Positions 11,207-16,030 of a stretch of DNA of 46,580 bases are shown in pieces; positions within the stretch are counted from its first letter, which is position 1, and each line of letters begins with the position of its first letter. The stretch is from a virus. The position numbers were made by a program, and so were the translations under genes. The stretch is from the IMG/VR virus record IMGVR_UViG_3300031413_000013, positions 1 through 46,580 of that record; one strand, 5' to 3'. The notes beneath the pieces were generated by a model. The model did no database searches. It saw only the letters and a list, made by a program, of their open reading frames with translations, and was not told where the DNA came from.

Positions 11207-11883
11207 TGACCATCGATACGACAGACCAGCAAGCGGTGACGGTTGCGCAGGAGGACCGGGAGGCGGCTGCGAACATGCACGCTTACATCATGCGCGAGTT
11301 GGGCGATGCCGCCCCGGCCAAGCTCTTGTGCGATATTATGACGGAGCGGATGAGGACCGGGTGGCACGATAACAGCGAAGGGGTCCAAGCCTTCGCCCGC
11401 CATCGCCCCGCCTCTGTATCATCCGCGAGTGTAGAGACGTTGGCGCTACAGGCGATCAAGGTCGTCACCGCCACGGCAAAGGACGGTGCAGCGGGGCTTT
11501 CGCGGATCATGGCGATCGCGAACGCTGCGGGCGTGCAGGCATCCTACAACGATTTGCTGCAAGATCCCGCGGTGGCGCTGATCGTCGAGCATCCGCGCAC
11601 CGAATGGACGCACTTGTTCAAGCCGGATGCGAAGGGTTGCGCAATCCCGCCCGATGGCTGGCAGTGTTCACGCGCTCGCGGCCATGCCGGTCCGTGCGCC
11701 GCATCCCCCGAACCTGTACCCGCGACCAATCAGGCGGGAGAGGTGGCCGAACGGGCGCGCGAGTTGGCGCACCGGATCATCTTGGAGTTCAGGCCAAACG
11801 GTTGGGAGGCAAAGGAGAAGGAACTGTATCGGCTTTTGCTTGGCAGTTTTGAAGCCGCCCTCGCACAGGTCAAGGCATCATGA
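11206..11883 (+). CDS. Hypothetical protein (225 aa).
   Basis: Long coupled ORF. Confidence 0.65.
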   Translation: MTIDTTDQQAVTVAQEDREAAANMHAYIMRELGDAAPAKLLCDIMTERMRTGWHDNSEGVQAFARHRPASVSSASVETLALQAIKVVTATAKDGAAGLSRIMAIANAAGVQASYNDLLQDPAVALIVEHPRTEWTHLFKPDAKGCAIPPDGWQCSRARGHAGPCAASPEPVPATNQAGEVAERARELAHRIILEFRPNGWEAKEKELYRLLLGSFEAALAQVKAS

Positions 11884-12236
11884 GCGGGGCTGTCGAAGGG
11901 GTGGCGCTATCGCCTTGTCCGTTCTGTGGCTCATGTGATGTGGTGCTGATCCCTCAGACGGGCTCAGTCGAATGCATTGACTGCGGCGCGATCGGCCCTG
12001 GCACGCTTGGCGATGATTGTGCCGCGCTCTGGAACACCCGCACCACACCCCCAGCGCGGTCCTATGCGGATGCGATCGAGGACGCGGCGAAGGCCTGCGA
12101 GGACCAGCAGCAAGTGTTTCTGTCCCCGCAGTACGCCACAGGTCAACCGCTGTCATCATTTCACGAGCGTTTCGCGTGCGGGCAGTGTGCCGCCGCCATC
12201 CGCCTCTTGTCGCATTCCAGTAAAGGTGTAGAGTAA
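11880..12236 (+). CDS. Lar-family (restriction alleviation)-like protein, copy 1. Its 3' end has been replaced by the tnpB insertion.
   Basis: LSPCPFCGSCDVVLIPQTGSVECIDCGAIGP...ALWNTRT matches the Lar zinc-ribbon pattern CPFCG...C..CG...WNTR. Confidence 0.65.
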   Translation: MSGAVEGVALSPCPFCGSCDVVLIPQTGSVECIDCGAIGPGTLGDDCAALWNTRTTPPARSYADAIEDAAKACEDQQQVFLSPQYATGQPLSSFHERFACGQCAAAIRLLSHSSKGVE

Positions 12237-13341
12237 TGGAGATGGCAACTCAGACCATAACCGCCAAGTTTCGGCTACGCGATAAGCACGCGACTGAGCT
12301 TAATCGCCAGTCCCGCGTCGTCAATTTTGTGTGGAACTACTGCAACGAGGTACAGAAGAAGGCGGCTCAAGCCGGTCGAAAGTGGCTTACCGCGTTTGAG
12401 TTGATGCGGATGACCAGCGGCTCTTCGAAAGAACTGGACGTACACTGCCATACGATCCAGCGGGTATGCTCCGCGCATTATGATGCTCGTCGTACGCACA
12501 AGCTTCCTTGGCTTAGGTGGCGTTCGCGTAAATCGCTTGGATGGGTTCCGTTCAACAACAGCTACGTTCATTTCGATGGCGAGTGTTTCGTGTTCCGTGG
12601 CGTCCGCTACGAGGCGATGCATCTACGTCCATTTCTTAAGCCGGGCATGCGGTTTGGCGCTGGCAGCTTTAATGCTGATGCCAAGGGCAACTGGTATATC
12701 AATCTGCCAGTCGCTGTAGAGTGTGCAGATCCATGCTCAGGCCCATCGATCGGCGTTGACCTGGGTCTTAAGACGCTTGCAACGCTATCCGATGGCGCAA
12801 GCATCGTTATGCCGCGCTTCTACCGCGAAAGCGAGATGGCACTGGCTACTGCGCAGCGCGCCAAAAAGACGAAGCGCGCTCGAGCGATTCAGGCGAAGGC
12901 GCGTAACCGTCGCCAAGACTTTCAGCACAAGGCAAGTAAGGCATTGTGCGCGAAATACGGGGTCATCATCGTTGGTGATGTGAGCCCGTCGAAATTGGCC
13001 AAGACCAGCATGGCGAAGTCGGTTTACGACGCCGGCTGGTCGGGCCTCAAGAGCATGATCCGGTACAAGGCAATTATGCATGGCGGGACATATCTTGAGG
13101 TCAATGAGGCCTATAGTACCCAAACCTGCTCTTCGTGTGGCTCGCTGCCCGCGTCGAGGCCGAGAGGTATCGCAGGACTTGGAATGAGGGAATGGGAGTG
13201 CAGCGACTGCGGAACGGTCCACGACCGTGACGTAAACGCTGCGCGTAACATTCTCCGTGTCGGGCTGGACACGCTTGCCGAAGGAGCCGCGGCGAGACGG
13301 GGGAAACCCCTTATCGCTGAGGAGCAGCCAATCTTGTCGCA
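12205..13341 (+). mobile_element. TnpB-only insertion (IS200/IS605-family, IS1341-like) bracketed by the 10-bp direct repeat TCTTGTCGCA.
   Basis: The repeat lies at 12205-12214 and 13332-13341. The interior is visibly lower in GC than the flanks and contains a single tnpB ORF. No tnpA is present. Confidence 0.7.
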
Positions 13342-13357
13342 GGGAGCCTCGGCATGA
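12236..13357 (+). CDS. tnpB: TnpB RNA-guided endonuclease (OrfB_IS605 + Zn ribbon); catalytic residues intact.
   Basis: RuvC-I is SIGVDLGLKT, RuvC-II is LEVNEAYSTQTCSSCG, the zinc finger is CSSCG...CSDCG and RuvC-III is HDRDVNAARNILRVG. The protein is 373 aa. Confidence 0.9.
   Translation: MEMATQTITAKFRLRDKHATELNRQSRVVNFVWNYCNEVQKKAAQAGRKWLTAFELMRMTSGSSKELDVHCHTIQRVCSAHYDARRTHKLPWLRWRSRKSLGWVPFNNSYVHFDGECFVFRGVRYEAMHLRPFLKPGMRFGAGSFNADAKGNWYINLPVAVECADPCSGPSIGVDLGLKTLATLSDGASIVMPRFYRESEMALATAQRAKKTKRARAIQAKARNRRQDFQHKASKALCAKYGVIIVGDVSPSKLAKTSMAKSVYDAGWSGLKSMIRYKAIMHGGTYLEVNEAYSTQTCSSCGSLPASRPRGIAGLGMREWECSDCGTVHDRDVNAARNILRVGLDTLAEGAAARRGKPLIAEEQPILSQGASA
13150..13357 (+). ncRNA. Candidate omega-RNA (scaffold plus guide) for TnpB. 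Predicted only from position.
   Basis: In known TnpB systems the guide RNA overlaps the 3' end of tnpB and ends in flanking DNA. A local hairpin GGGG-AAA-CCCC lies at 13300-13310. No covariance evidence is available. Confidence 0.35.
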
Positions 13358-13533
13358 GCACCACCGACATCCCCAAGCGCTACGACGACAACGGTATCCG
13401 CATGATGCAGACCGGGGCCGAACGTCGCTTACCCTGCGGTCGGACGGTACAGATGCACACGCCTAACCCAGAGTGGATGGCCGAACTGCTGGCAAAGCTT
13501 GGCGATGTGCCGGAGGTGCGAAATGGCCAGTAG
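13354..13533 (+). CDS. Small hypothetical protein (59 aa; below the ORF-track cutoff).
   Basis: Manual translation gives MSTTDIPKRYDDNGIRMMQTGAERRLPCGRTVQMHTPNPEWMAELLAKLGDVPEVRNGQ*. Third-position GC is high, and the start forms an ATGA overlap with the tnpB stop. Confidence 0.5.
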   Translation: MSTTDIPKRYDDNGIRMMQTGAERRLPCGRTVQMHTPNPEWMAELLAKLGDVPEVRNGQ

Positions 13534-13885
13534 CTTCGACATCCCGCCGCCCTTCACTGTTCGCACCCTTGCCGATCGGTGGGGGTGCAGCGAAGGCGCG
13601 ATCCGTAAATTGATCGACACAGATGGCTTGCCGCATTTCAGGATCGGTGTCCTTATCAGGATCGCCGCGAGCGATATCCAGGAATACGAGCAATGCCAGA
13701 AGACCCCTACACCGTTCAAAAGCTGCGAGGCGGATTTGCCATCGTCCACCGTGAAGACGGAAAGCGACGACGGATCCAGCTCGAGGCGACGGATCGCCAA
13801 AGCGCCGAAGCGGAAGCGCGCCGCAAATGGGCAGCTAGTGACCAGTCGCCGTGGACTGTCTCTCGTGTCGTCGCACACTACCTAA
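13523..13885 (+). CDS. xis: Excisionase-family HTH protein. The ORF runs about 190 nt into int in another frame.
   Basis: FTVRTLADRWGCSEGAIRKLIDTDGLPHFRIGVLIRIAASDIQEYE is a typical excisionase/AlpA HTH_17 pattern located directly upstream of int. Confidence 0.65.
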   Translation: MASSFDIPPPFTVRTLADRWGCSEGAIRKLIDTDGLPHFRIGVLIRIAASDIQEYEQCQKTPTPFKSCEADLPSSTVKTESDDGSSSRRRIAKAPKRKRAANGQLVTSRRGLSLVSSHTT

Positions 13886-14709
13886 AGGCCAAGGAGGCGG
13901 AGGGGATCGCCACCCTCGACCGGCGCCGTGATGCGTGGAAGGCGATGCGGCCATTCTGGGAGCGAATCGATCCGCACATGATCGACCCCCCGATGTGTAA
14001 GGCGTATCGCGCTACCCGGCCTGTGTCCGATGCCACCGTGCGGCTTGAGTTGTCCTTGCTCTCGACTGCGCTGGGCATGGTCGCCAAGGACCGCAACATC
14101 CCCGAGATCACCAACAAGCCCGATATGTGGCTTCCCCCGGCAAGCGAGCGGCAGGAGCGGCACCTTACGGCCCGCCAGTTCAAGAAGCTCCAGGCGGGCG
14201 CTATAGCCCCCCACGCTTCGCTCTATATGGCCCTTGGTGTCTTCACCCTCGCACGCCCTAGCGCGCTGTTCGACCTTCGCTGGACGCAGGTCGACTTCAT
14301 CCGCAACCTTATCGACCTCAACCCGCCTGGCCGGCGTCAGACAGCGAAGAAGCGGCCGATCGTGCCAATGGGTCCGCTGTTGCGCGAGGCTATGGAAAAG
14401 GCCTTCCGCGCGCGCACCTGCGAATATGTCATCGAATCTGGCGGCAAGCCCATCGCCAGCATCAAAAAGGCGTTTCAGGCAGCGGGCAAAAGGAGCGGTG
14501 TCCACGCAACGCCCTATACGCTTCGCCATACTGGCGCCGTTTGGTCGGCTGAACAGGGCACACCGATGCCGGTATTAGCCCAGCTTATGGGCCACGATGA
14601 CGACCGGACCACGCAAAAGCATTACGCGAGGTTTTCGCCGGACTACCTTCGCGGGGCCAGCCAGAGTGTCGAGGATGCGTTCAATGAAAAAGTCCGAGGT
14701 TCACCGTGA
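13693..14709 (+). CDS. int: Tyrosine integrase.
   Basis: The catalytic pattern is present: ...LARPSAL (Arg)...YTLRHTGAVW (HxxR)...HDDDRTTQKHY (Tyr). The attP core lies 43 nt downstream. Confidence 0.9.
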   Translation: MPEDPYTVQKLRGGFAIVHREDGKRRRIQLEATDRQSAEAEARRKWAASDQSPWTVSRVVAHYLKAKEAEGIATLDRRRDAWKAMRPFWERIDPHMIDPPMCKAYRATRPVSDATVRLELSLLSTALGMVAKDRNIPEITNKPDMWLPPASERQERHLTARQFKKLQAGAIAPHASLYMALGVFTLARPSALFDLRWTQVDFIRNLIDLNPPGRRQTAKKRPIVPMGPLLREAMEKAFRARTCEYVIESGGKPIASIKKAFQAAGKRSGVHATPYTLRHTGAVWSAEQGTPMPVLAQLMGHDDDRTTQKHYARFSPDYLRGASQSVEDAFNEKVRGSP

Positions 14710-14751
14710 ACCTTCGATCCCTGTCCATATTGGCGCTAAGTCCTTGATAAA

Positions 14752-14797
14752 TGGTCGGGAAGAGAGGATTCGAACCTCCGGCCCCTGCCTCCCGAAG
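14752..14797 (-). other. attP core: the 3' 46 nt of a tRNA-Pro(CGG), from the anticodon loop to CCA. It is not a complete tRNA.
   Basis: The reverse complement is CTTCGGGAGGCAGGGGCCGGAGGTTCGAATCCTCTCTTCCCGACCA. This comprises the anticodon loop TTCGGGA, the 3' anticodon stem, a T arm GGAGG-TTCGAAT-CCTCT and the acceptor 3' strand plus ACCA. The upstream sequence cannot form the 5' half. Confidence 0.8.
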
Positions 14798-14821
14798 ACG
14801 CTTCCCCGGAGCGCATATGGC

Positions 14822-14908
14822 GGTTTTCCGTGGTTTCCGCCCTGTGTGGCGTCCTGTCTGAACGCCTATGTTCCTGTTTGATTCACGGTTCGAGGTTCGT
14901 TGTGAACC
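14822..14908. repeat. Short GGTT(T)C-type repeats beside the attP core; candidate arm-type integrase or Xis binding sites.
   Basis: GGTTTTCCG lies at 14822-14830 and GGTTTCCG at 14832-14839. GGTTCG lies at 14887-14892 and 14894-14899, and an inverted GGTTCA lies within 14900-14908. Confidence 0.35.
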
Positions 14909-14919
14909 TGAACCCCTGT

Positions 14920-15069
14920 CTATGCGCCTCGCCGCTGCAATTCTCGCTCGACCGCTTCCCGGATGAATGCGGGTCGGCCGTAGTTGCCGGCGATCGCGTC
15001 GATACGGGCGAGCACGTCAGGCGCGAGCCGAACGGGCACGGGTTTCAGATTGAGCGGAGGGCGTCCCAT
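14920..15069 (-). CDS. Ribbon-helix-helix (CopG/Arc-like) DNA-binding protein.
   Basis: MGRPPLNLKPVPVRLAPDVLARIDAIAGNYGRPAFIREAVERELQRRGA follows a beta-strand then two-helix RHH pattern. The internal ATG at 15067-15069 was chosen. Confidence 0.7.
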   Translation of the reverse strand: MGRPPLNLKPVPVRLAPDVLARIDAIAGNYGRPAFIREAVERELQRRGA

Positions 15070-15107
15070 GCGCGGCTCGTTAGCGGGAGCGGTTTCTGTT
15101 CGCAAGA

Positions 15108-15168
15108 AAACGATACTCTTTTCTGTTGACCGGGTAAACGATGCTGTTTATATAAACGATATTGTTTT
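15108..15168 (+). promoter_or_regulatory. Three direct repeats AAACGAT-RYT-STTT overlapping a sigma70-like promoter (TTGACC-17-TATATA).
   Basis: The repeats lie at 15108-15122, 15136-15150 and 15154-15168. The -35 TTGACC is at 15126-15131 and the -10 TATATA at 15149-15154. GGAGG precedes the ATG at 15184. Confidence 0.6.
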
Positions 15169-15183
15169 GGAGGCAAGTGCGAT

Positions 15184-15597
15184 ATGAAGGGTCGGGGTTT
15201 TATGGAGATGGCCGTCGAGAGGCGGATCCAGATGGGGCTTCCGATCCTGCCTAAGCATATCGCGCAGGTTGAAGCGGCAAAGGCGTCACGACTGGCGGCA
15301 CTCGCTGATGTTGTTGTGCCCGAGCGGCGCCCGCAGTTCGTCTACTTCGTTGGTGCTGGCGATTCCGGCCCGGTCAAGATCGGCGTCGCAATGTCGATCG
15401 AAGCGCGCCTGATGGCGCTACAGGTCAGCCACTACGAGCCGTTGACGGTTCTCGCGACGTGCCCCGGCAGCATCAAGCTCGAGCGCGAATATCACCGGCG
15501 CTTTGCCGATGCGCGGCTGCTCGGTGAATGGTTCACCCGCACGCCCGAGATCGAAGCGGAGATCGCCCGCCTTAACCAGATGGAGCAAGCAGCATGA
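15184..15597 (+). CDS. T5orf172 / MUG113 (GIY-YIG-like) domain protein, copy 2.
   Basis: FVYFVGAGDSGPVKIGVAMSIEARLMALQ...EREYHRRFADARLLGEWF is the T5orf172 signature. Confidence 0.7.
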   Translation: MKGRGFMEMAVERRIQMGLPILPKHIAQVEAAKASRLAALADVVVPERRPQFVYFVGAGDSGPVKIGVAMSIEARLMALQVSHYEPLTVLATCPGSIKLEREYHRRFADARLLGEWFTRTPEIEAEIARLNQMEQAA

Positions 15598-15812
15598 GCC
15601 GTGGTCTGGACCGCTGGGCGGATATGCAGAAGCAAGGTGTATTCCGCGGCATTGCCAAACGCGCTGAACTAGCAGCCAAAAAGGCCGCAGCACGTGAAGT
15701 CACCGACGCCCAGTTCCGCGAAAATATCCGCCGTCAGGTTGCGCGCGAAACTCGGATTATGTTTGGCGAAGAGGAGGCCTCACCGCTTCCTAATAATAGG
15801 AAACCATCATGA
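15594..15812 (+). CDS. Hypothetical protein (72 aa).
   Basis: Coupled ORF. Confidence 0.55.
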   Translation: MSRGLDRWADMQKQGVFRGIAKRAELAAKKAAAREVTDAQFRENIRRQVARETRIMFGEEEASPLPNNRKPS

Positions 15813-16030
15813 GCCTCCTTCCCTGCCCCTTTTGCGGCTCACCGGTGGTACTCAGCCGCGCTCACGTCACCGGCGAGTCCGACTATATCCAGCATGACCG
15901 AAATGCGGCACTGACAGATTGCGGGCTGGACGCCTTCAGCAACTTTGCGATTGATGCTGACGTGTCGGCGCTTTGGAACACTCGCACCCCCACCCTTCCC
16001 GCCCGCCTCACCGAGGGAGAAGTAGCGTGA
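15809..16030 (+). CDS. Lar-family (restriction alleviation)-like protein, copy 2.
   Basis: MSLLPCPFCGSPVVLS...ALWNTRTP shows the same CPFCG...WNTR pattern as 11880-12236. Confidence 0.6.
   Translation: MSLLPCPFCGSPVVLSRAHVTGESDYIQHDRNAALTDCGLDAFSNFAIDADVSALWNTRTPTLPARLTEGEVA

Follow-up and report, generated by a model that had tools for sequence, protein, structure and literature searches.

This analysis revealed that the temperate tailed phage of IMG/VR record IMGVR_UViG_3300031413_000013 carries, in a short linker that recurs in many other phages, a non-autonomous element of the IS200/IS605 type (IS1341-like) which is 1,117 bp long and holds only tnpB and a 3' omega-RNA. The record was analysed over positions 1 to 46,580, and this whole stretch of 46,580 bases is referred to as the window; the phage is of a kind found in Sphingomonas-type hosts. 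The element lacks everything that the transposase TnpA needs, namely tnpA itself, the left-end hairpin together with about 150 nucleotides (nt), and the right-end hairpin, and it is flanked by a 10-bp direct repeat which was verified as a target duplication against about 22 empty sites. Transposition of the IS200/IS605 and IS607 kinds makes no target duplication (PMC13565253, PMC10690162, PMC8612924), so that an earlier, sequence-only reading of this DNA was right to call the repeat unexplained by the IS200/IS605 mechanism; the duplication most likely does not come from peel-and-paste transposition. The best explanation as a whole, to which we give a probability of roughly one half, is that a tnpB-only element occupies a shared linker through homing-type targeting and that the duplication was produced by break repair.

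The repeat, TCTTGTCGCA, is found on the plus strand at 12205-12214 and 13332-13341 and has no third copy in the window. Shuffled versions of the window contained a mean of 0.10 copies, and two copies were reached in 1 of 100 shuffles. Between the copies lies the 1,117-bp segment (12215-13331) of lower G+C with tnpB as its sole gene, an arrangement which the sequence-only reading had described and on which the positions, the list of open reading frames (ORFs) and a G+C scan agree. Joining 12214 to 13342 reconstructs an empty site that reads GCCGCCGCCATCCGCCTCTTGTCGCAGGGAGCCTCGGCATGA, and three relatives without tnpB (L148, L149 and L150; L numbers are our handles for related sequences) read GCCGCCGCCATCCGCCTCTTGTCGCAGGGAGGGAAGGCATGA at the same gene end. 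The window without 12215-13341 differs from these three by four bases (CCTC versus GGAA) past the linker core; these were considered as a repair scar, a possibility that was rejected since the stretch varies among all relatives.

The empty site is common. The uninterrupted core, GCCGCCATCCGCC directly followed by TCTTGTCGCAGGGAG...ATGA, was found in 19 IMG/VR phage contigs with unrelated DNA on both sides and was filled in none of the 19; three further contigs bring the total to about 22. In the window, the left half of this conserved 28-nt linker, GCCGCCATCCGCC, occupies 12192-12204 (plus strand) and precedes the duplicated bases, and exactly this 12-13-mer stands before TCTTGTCGCAGGGAG in sixteen IMG/VR contigs, the sequence farther upstream being unrelated. 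The insertion near the 3' end of a Lar-like gene and its clean empty site, both proposed from the sequence alone, are thus borne out. Viewed in its own right, the linker (28-45 nt, GCCGCCATCCGCCTCTTGTCGCAGGGAG...GGCATGAGCGG) separates modules in at least 22 phage contigs whose genes on either side of it are unrelated (window 12192-12214 plus 13342-13357; L148-L150, L357-L359, L363, L368-L371, L374, L376, L378-L383, L386 and L387), and it resembles a boundary at which cassettes are exchanged. L380 (IMGVR_UViG_3300023104_000002, the same contig as L092/L151) carries a 71%-identical tnpB at another site, with its linker empty. In L393, an identical 59-aa downstream gene stands behind a different upstream gene, and homology begins exactly at the ATG.

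The interrupted Lar-like gene (11880-12236, plus strand) encodes 118 aa in its present form and matches PF14354 (E 1.6e-7). Its homologues form a mosaic family which starts with MSGAVEGV and has unrelated middles, and nine of the homologous proteins examined end in ...AAIRLL(S/P)QG(G/E)KA, a tail equal in length to the reconstructed ...LLSQGASA. The uninterrupted gene predicted for relatives was therefore found with the expected tail length, and none of the relatives natively ended in ...HSSKGVE, the case that would have spoken for an unbroken gene in the window. The nearest such tail, ...SPESKGD (P0005, P0006), was rejected as a native counterpart because it differs in DNA, the likeness being that of an in-frame ribosome-binding sequence. 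The insertion swaps only the last five native codons of the gene, where the tail varies among homologues.

An assembly artefact is unlikely, because the same filled site was also recovered from another sequencing run: contig L392 (Logan SRR8869678) matches window 12043-14777 at 100% identity. The only filled copies are those of this phage itself, in two datasets. No second copy of the element was found in genomes, IMG/VR, metagenomes or a set of 5.8 billion proteins, where the best TnpB matches were 72-74% identical. The cultured-phage collection held no close relative of the flanks, and its tnpB relatives were merely 44-46% identical.

With regard to the right boundary, the homology of about 35 related elements (TnpB at least 52% identical) stops at GGAGnnn(C/T)CA(A/C/T), beyond which the flanks are unrelated. 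In the window this terminal motif, GAGGAGCAGCCAA, lies at 13319-13331 (plus strand), with 13331 as the last base of the element (GGAGCAGCCAA). The right repeat copy (13332-13341, plus strand) therefore lies outside the element and is target DNA, and it also forms the first 10 nt of the predicted guide. In the TnpB family, the DNA that directly follows the right end on its 3' side serves as the guide (PMC8612924); the predicted guide is accordingly TCTTGTCGCAGGGAGCCTCG at 13332-13351 (plus strand), with a length chosen by analogy. At least 22 other phage contigs have the first 15 nt of this guide unchanged in their empty linker, and a second full match is absent from the window. The predicted omega-RNA scaffold spans 173 nt (13159-13331, plus strand) and overlaps the 3' end of tnpB. 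Among 33 relatives, 95.9% of its pair cells were paired, compared with 38-50% when the partners were slid, and double-sided changes were seen in 100 cells, compared with 4-32. The helix at 13256-13273 (CGTGTC/GACACG) shows compensatory changes in all six pairs, and the window sequence itself folds alike (z = -4.56). Rfam gave no match in 11500-15500. A DNA-pattern search for more right ends returned tnpB in only 2 of 120 matches, both from the same element without a repeat, the pattern being too unspecific. In L170, L172, L173 and L176, part of the right-end terminus (TAGGCGGGGGAGCAGT...) is repeated after the right end, which suggests remnants of tandem insertions.

The duplication recurs in relatives at the same register. 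For 36 close relatives, we determined the longest exact run shared by the bases after the right end and the 600 nt upstream of tnpB; this anchored test replaced an unanchored longest-common-substring test, which was too noisy in high-GC DNA. The run measured 10 nt in the window, 10 nt in L091, 11 nt in L156 (identical with L095 and L001) and 10 nt in L178, and at most 8 nt in all remaining elements. Control anchors placed 15-400 nt farther downstream gave runs of at least 10 nt in 0.06% of 1,671 trials, and the 4 elements out of 36 compare with about 0.02 expected. All four lack a TnpA-type left-end hairpin and have a right-end hairpin that is absent or degenerate, while the best run among the approximately 22 elements with intact TnpA hairpins was at most 6 nt. 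In the three relatives, the left copy stands directly after CGAC (L156) or TGAC (L091 and L178), which equals the insertion motif of the clade, described below, or is one base off. The distance from the left copy to the start of tnpB is 0, 21, about 42 and about 115 nt across the four elements, and the sequence in between is unrelated from one to another, with the exception of L091, which has the last 80 nt or so of the conserved left end; a search for the origin of the L091 left segment returned just L091. Taken together, the right junction is exact, the left side is cut back to a variable extent, and the target bases that are duplicated are the first 10-11. Allowing mismatches revealed no excess of decayed duplications in other elements, and repeats seen in the distant L058, L116, L136 and L143, as well as a 12-nt repeat in the close relative L101, were set aside as a tRNA attachment site, a right-end offset or chance. 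In the TnpB literature searched, we found no description of a recurrent, register-exact duplication of 10-11 bp at left-truncated copies.

The left side shows what has been lost. Relatives carry TnpA-type subterminal hairpins, gccccgNccttcaggNcgggg, at both ends, and the window has neither. In L397 and L401, the closest full-length relatives (TnpB 74% and 73% identical), a hairpin and a left end of about 175 nt follow the motif, and the right end has its hairpin as well; the window is without about 150 nt of the left end that these two keep and has 21 nt in its place, whereas L091 keeps just the last 80 nt or so. The 21-nt segment of the window, TTCCAGTAAAGGTGTAGAGTA (12215-12235, plus strand), lies between the left repeat and the tnpB ATG and includes AAAGGTG, which resembles a ribosome-binding sequence, along with the stop at which the Lar-like gene now ends; it has no hairpin and no homology to the left end of any relative. 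The remark that about 21 nt leave almost no room for a left end is therefore accurate, to the nucleotide. The same holds for the reported absence of tnpA, as none of the ORFs adjoining the element matched a transposase family, although not every ORF of the window was scanned for a Y1 transposase. Transposase-bearing relatives have Y1_Tnp and not the serine recombinase expected of IS607, and none of 137 relatives had a serine-recombinase motif within 1.5 kb. Multi-copy relatives in Massilia show a TTCAT motif, a left end of about 150 nt with hairpins and a right-end hairpin ending in GTCAA, and make no duplication. Among Ralstonia phages, Hyacinthe (L388) and Dimitile (L389) carry a complete IS605 with tnpA and tnpB and no flanking repeat, and Heva (L390) has the same tnpB and right end with everything left of the ATG replaced, again without a flanking repeat. 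These phages were considered as a model for the window and rejected, since neither the full IS605 nor the left-replaced copy in Heva comes with a duplication.

The elements of this clade follow a rule by which an insertion motif (C/T)GAN pairs with a right end (C/T)CAN that has the same first and last base. Co-variation of this kind was seen in L155, L158, L097, L159, L180, L184, L156, L401 and L397, with TGAC facing TCAC, TGAT facing TCAT, TGAA facing TCAA, CGAC facing CCAC and CGAT facing CCAT. The idea that CCAN right ends are mutated TnpA cleavage sites was abandoned, as L401 has CCAT together with a hairpin and the matching CGAT motif.

The TnpB of the window (tnpB ORF 12236-13357, plus strand, 373 aa) matches Pfam OrfB_IS605 (PF01385, 38 bits) and Cas12f1-like_TNB (PF07282, 83 bits), as well as ISDra2 TnpB structures (E 3e-22). 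Homology extends to approximately residue 353 (about 13294), and the remaining residues come from translation through the RNA scaffold and 26 nt of flanking DNA. Alignment to ISDra2 TnpB places D175 at D191 and D332 at D361, while G247 occupies the position of the canonical glutamate E278. The RuvC D/E/D triad, which had been taken as intact, is conserved in its two aspartates, and the assignment of the glutamate was wrong; the zinc finger is intact as described, C298, C301, C322 and C325 being invariant among relatives. All 192 relatives compared have G247, among them multi-copy elements that seem to have moved recently, and E291 is likewise invariant. Judged by these residues, the protein belongs to the RuvC-II-rearranged clade, for which a compensating glutamate has been proposed from structure models (PMC10691335). 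Public data contain about 4,900 proteins of this clade at E below 1e-60. By analogy with that work, E291 may serve as the alternative catalytic glutamate, and TnpB is plausibly an active RNA-guided nuclease.

Judging from its family, TnpB would associate with the RNA encoded at 13159-13331, and the 16-20 nt that follow would act as its guide. Provided that CCGCC can serve as the adjacent motif, competing or sister genomes without the element would be cut by the nuclease, and their repair on the template of the filled copy would spread or maintain the element in the manner of a free-standing homing endonuclease gene. Since the guide matches the empty linker over 15 nt, the nuclease could cut genomes without the element and be copied in, and homing of TnpB elements between co-infecting replicons has been proposed (PMC13565253). 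The duplication itself would be the scar of a TnpA-independent break repair anchored on the identity of guide and target. More specifically, it may have arisen from a TnpB break next to the motif that was repaired by copying the element from the right side, a step which we put forward tentatively and hold to be rather less probable than the explanation as a whole. Copying would be anchored on the junction of right end and guide, which is identical to the target by definition, and the copied strand would stop at a variable point upstream of tnpB. The left side would then be closed without homology, with the left end of the target keeping its first 10-11 bases, and the outcome would be a left-truncated element flanked by a duplication of the motif-proximal bases. 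A full-length copy of the window element with a natural left end starting TCTTGTCGCATTCCAG would speak against this origin.

Several observations weigh against the homing and break-repair explanation. As for the targeting step, the right end CCAA of the window predicts the motif CGAA; the left copy is preceded by CCGCC instead, and no GAA occurs within 60 nt of it. The candidate left boundaries match the cognate motif in 2 of 4 bases (CGCC) or in 3 of 4 (CGCA, at the end of the left copy). As for spread by homing, no filled linker was found in any other phage, with about 22 sites empty and one filled. As for the position of the cut, cleavage by ISDra2 TnpB falls at +15 on the non-target strand and at +20/21 on the target strand (PMC8612924), which would leave about 15 nt and not the 10-11 observed; a seed-length match of an older guide to the target, or another cut position in the rearranged clade, could reconcile the lengths. 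Furthermore, the hairpin-less relatives L151, L161, L163, L248, L395, L399 and L400 have no duplication. Finally, empty sites for L091, L156 and L178 were not found (a protein search and two degenerate DNA patterns were negative for L156 and L178), so that the duplications of these three stand on statistics only.

The strongest competitor is illegitimate recombination, by microhomology template switching or single-strand annealing as in phage mosaics, with the 10 bp as microhomology and TnpB as a passenger. The conserved linker is indeed prone to recombination and is flanked by unrelated modules in at least 22 phages; in the window the site lacks the expected adjacent motif, and the left junction has no homology. 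However, the repeat begins at the first base past the conserved right end in four independent elements, and in three of the four also at the first base past a motif-like NGAC; random microhomology would not respect both boundaries. In addition, an anchored repeat of at least 10 nt occurred at none of the hairpin-retaining elements among the 36 close relatives. We regard this route as unlikely, although better placed than the other alternatives.

An element that no longer moves may also have been kept for a phage function. TnpB with its fixed guide could be a weapon against linker-bearing phages, or it could be regulatory; the left copy, which offers a 10-nt seed match just ahead of tnpB, would then be bound but not cleaved and would hold down expression of the operon. 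Here, as in L395 and L399 (TnpB 74% identical), tnpB stands just upstream of excisionase and integrase, and the guide matches the linker of many related phages. A natural parallel is the autoregulation of Cas9 by partial matches. Nevertheless, the tnpB genes of the window, L395 and L399 lie at different junctions, and their position is therefore not inherited as a unit; the left copy is absent from most relatives, and the conserved catalytic residues argue for a nuclease and not for a binding protein. Retention for such a function is improbable in our judgement, and it is compatible with any origin of the duplication.

Canonical peel-and-paste by a TnpA of the host, with the left end at 12205 or 12215 and the repeat due to chance or drift, is very improbable. 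It would agree with descent from TnpA-mobilized relatives that have the same right-end motif, and with the repeated loss of hairpins in phage-borne copies. Against this, the probability that 10 of 10 bases agree by chance at a fixed register is about 1e-6, and three further elements show such a match; drift is unable to create a target copy, the family makes no duplication, and the cognate motif stands at neither candidate left boundary.

The two remaining routes are the least probable of all. Mobilization in trans by another transposase with staggered cuts, for example an IS4-like DDE enzyme, would account for the length of the duplication, as 9-12 bp are typical of some DDE families, but the element has no inverted repeats at its ends (TTCCAGTAAAGG at the left versus TTGGCTGCTCCTC, the reverse complement of the right end), four elements have their right boundary exactly at the IS605-type right end, and no gene for such a transposase is located nearby. 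RNA-templated insertion, in which an unprocessed tnpB mRNA with its 3' guide would pair with the target and the nicked strand would prime reverse transcription up to the point where transcript or copying stops, would give a duplication and a 5' truncation of the LINE type. It would explain the exact junction of right end and guide, the variable, promoter-less left boundary (0-115 nt) and the guide-proximal duplication, but none of the scanned ORFs, whether of the window or beside relatives, was seen to encode a reverse transcriptase, the route has no known precedent, and DNA-templated break repair covers the same features.

Given its ancestry, the window element is a degenerate IS1341-like member of IS200/IS605, which departs from the group in its hairpins, its cognate motif and its duplication. 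It has in common with the IS1341 group and the ISDra2 module the OrfB_IS605 and TNB domains, the zinc finger, an RNA over the 3' end of tnpB and a guide after the right end, and in its relatives the terminal tetranucleotide of the right end pairs with the target motif as in that group. In contrast, the window has no subterminal hairpins, almost no left end and no cognate motif, a 10-bp duplication is present, and the RuvC-II glutamate is replaced by glycine. The RIIr clades of TnpB (Altae-Tran et al. 2023, PMC10691335) likewise have glycine at the canonical glutamate and an invariant glutamate downstream (E291 here), and some RIIr branches are enriched in viruses (PMC10691335); unlike the window, no target duplications are reported for them in that paper.

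Free-standing phage homing endonuclease genes (T4 SegF) and the proposed "non-restorative homing" of TnpB (PMC13565253) resemble the window in that a nuclease gene lies between conserved phage genes and that the predicted target is the uninterrupted allele, common in related phages. The window differs in that recognition would be by an RNA guide, that no spread to other phages was seen and that a duplication is present, whereas homing copies an allele faithfully and does not itself make duplications. IStrons, which combine IS605 or IS607 with a group I intron, share an insertion that is nearly harmless to the interrupted gene (PMC10690162); in the window, harm is avoided at the level of translation through overlapping stops and starts, and not by RNA splicing. 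LINE-type retroelements, by analogy only, show one exact end, another that is variably truncated and a short duplication, but the window has neither a reverse transcriptase nor a poly(A) tail, and a DNA-templated origin is more likely.

The junctions between genes illustrate how the insertion fits into the phage. On the left, the Lar-like ORF now ends in ...LLSHSSKGVE (AAAIRLLSHSSKGVE before the stop), and its TAA overlaps the tnpB ATG (TAATG) after the 21-nt segment; the left repeat copy (12205-12214, plus strand), which is target DNA, still codes for L-L-S of the Lar-like protein. On the right, tnpB ends in ...ILSQGASA, its TGA overlaps the ATG at 13354 (ATGA), and it thus carries the displaced LSQGASA tail, as the sequence-only reading had stated for both sides. 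The next phage gene (13354-13533, plus strand, 59 aa) is followed by an HTH_17 excisionase-like gene and a tyrosine integrase (13693-14709), in keeping with the suggested position upstream of xis-int in a temperate phage, and the window also codes for terminase, portal, protease, major head, tape-measure and tail-fibre proteins. A simple consensus scan detected no promoter or terminator inside the element. Because of this, and because of the overlapping stops and starts on both sides, the element probably rides on the phage early transcript.

The base composition of the segment was examined by the sliding G+C and codon comparison that had been suggested. G+C is 0.53-0.59 over 12200-13100, compared with 0.62-0.66 in the flanks; tnpB has a G+C of 0.566 and a G+C at third codon positions of 0.64, the neighbouring genes reaching 0.70-0.74 at those positions. 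The dip is therefore real, but it does not date the insertion, because the tnpB genes of related phages have the same trait. The phage-borne, hairpin-less tnpB genes (window 12236-13294; L091, L151, L156, L395 and L399) lie 4-8 points of G+C below their flanks, and the full-length L397 tnpB has a G+C equal to that of its own flanks. Elsewhere in the window, a second, shorter Lar-like ORF (15809-16030, 73 aa, PF14354 slightly under the cut-off) is found downstream of the integrase region, and 14700-15300, directly after the integrase, has a G+C of 0.52-0.55 and two terminator-like hairpins and is possibly where the attachment site lies. The window has no tRNA gene.

Some relatives show junctions of a different design. 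In L395 (2314-3387) and L399 (2501-4084), which are Sphingomonas-type (pro)phages, a 74%-identical tnpB lies upstream of excisionase and integrase at different junctions; in L399 an in-frame fusion joins it with a Lar-like gene into one 527-aa ORF, and the right ends of the two finish in ACAC or ACAA. In the right ends of L101/L181, L156, L178, L395 and L399, the tnpB stop overlaps an ATG (ATGA). In L101/L181, L156 and L178 the frame of this ATG continues through the right end into the interrupted host gene, which is therefore re-initiated with a short new leader; their insertion motif ATGAC consists of the host start codon and AC, and the right end (T/C)CAC restores the AC. Re-initiation from a start codon within the right end, after a host ATGAC, represents a second way to stay harmless, besides intron splicing.

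TnpB in phages, copies that hold only tnpB, and a rearranged catalytic site are already known. Most copies of TnpB elements have no transposase. The recurrent, exactly placed duplication of 10-11 bp at left-truncated copies offers a testable footprint of a transposase-independent route. As a general proposition, that TnpB/omega-RNA modules reach guide-matching sites, or re-establish themselves there, without any transposase is something for which we claim little confidence at present; if true, the window would be one such event, in a linker common to dozens of related phages. As the site is a short sequence common to many otherwise mosaic phages, a fixed-guide nuclease located there could act in phage competition, and the duplication hints at a second way for TnpB elements to move.

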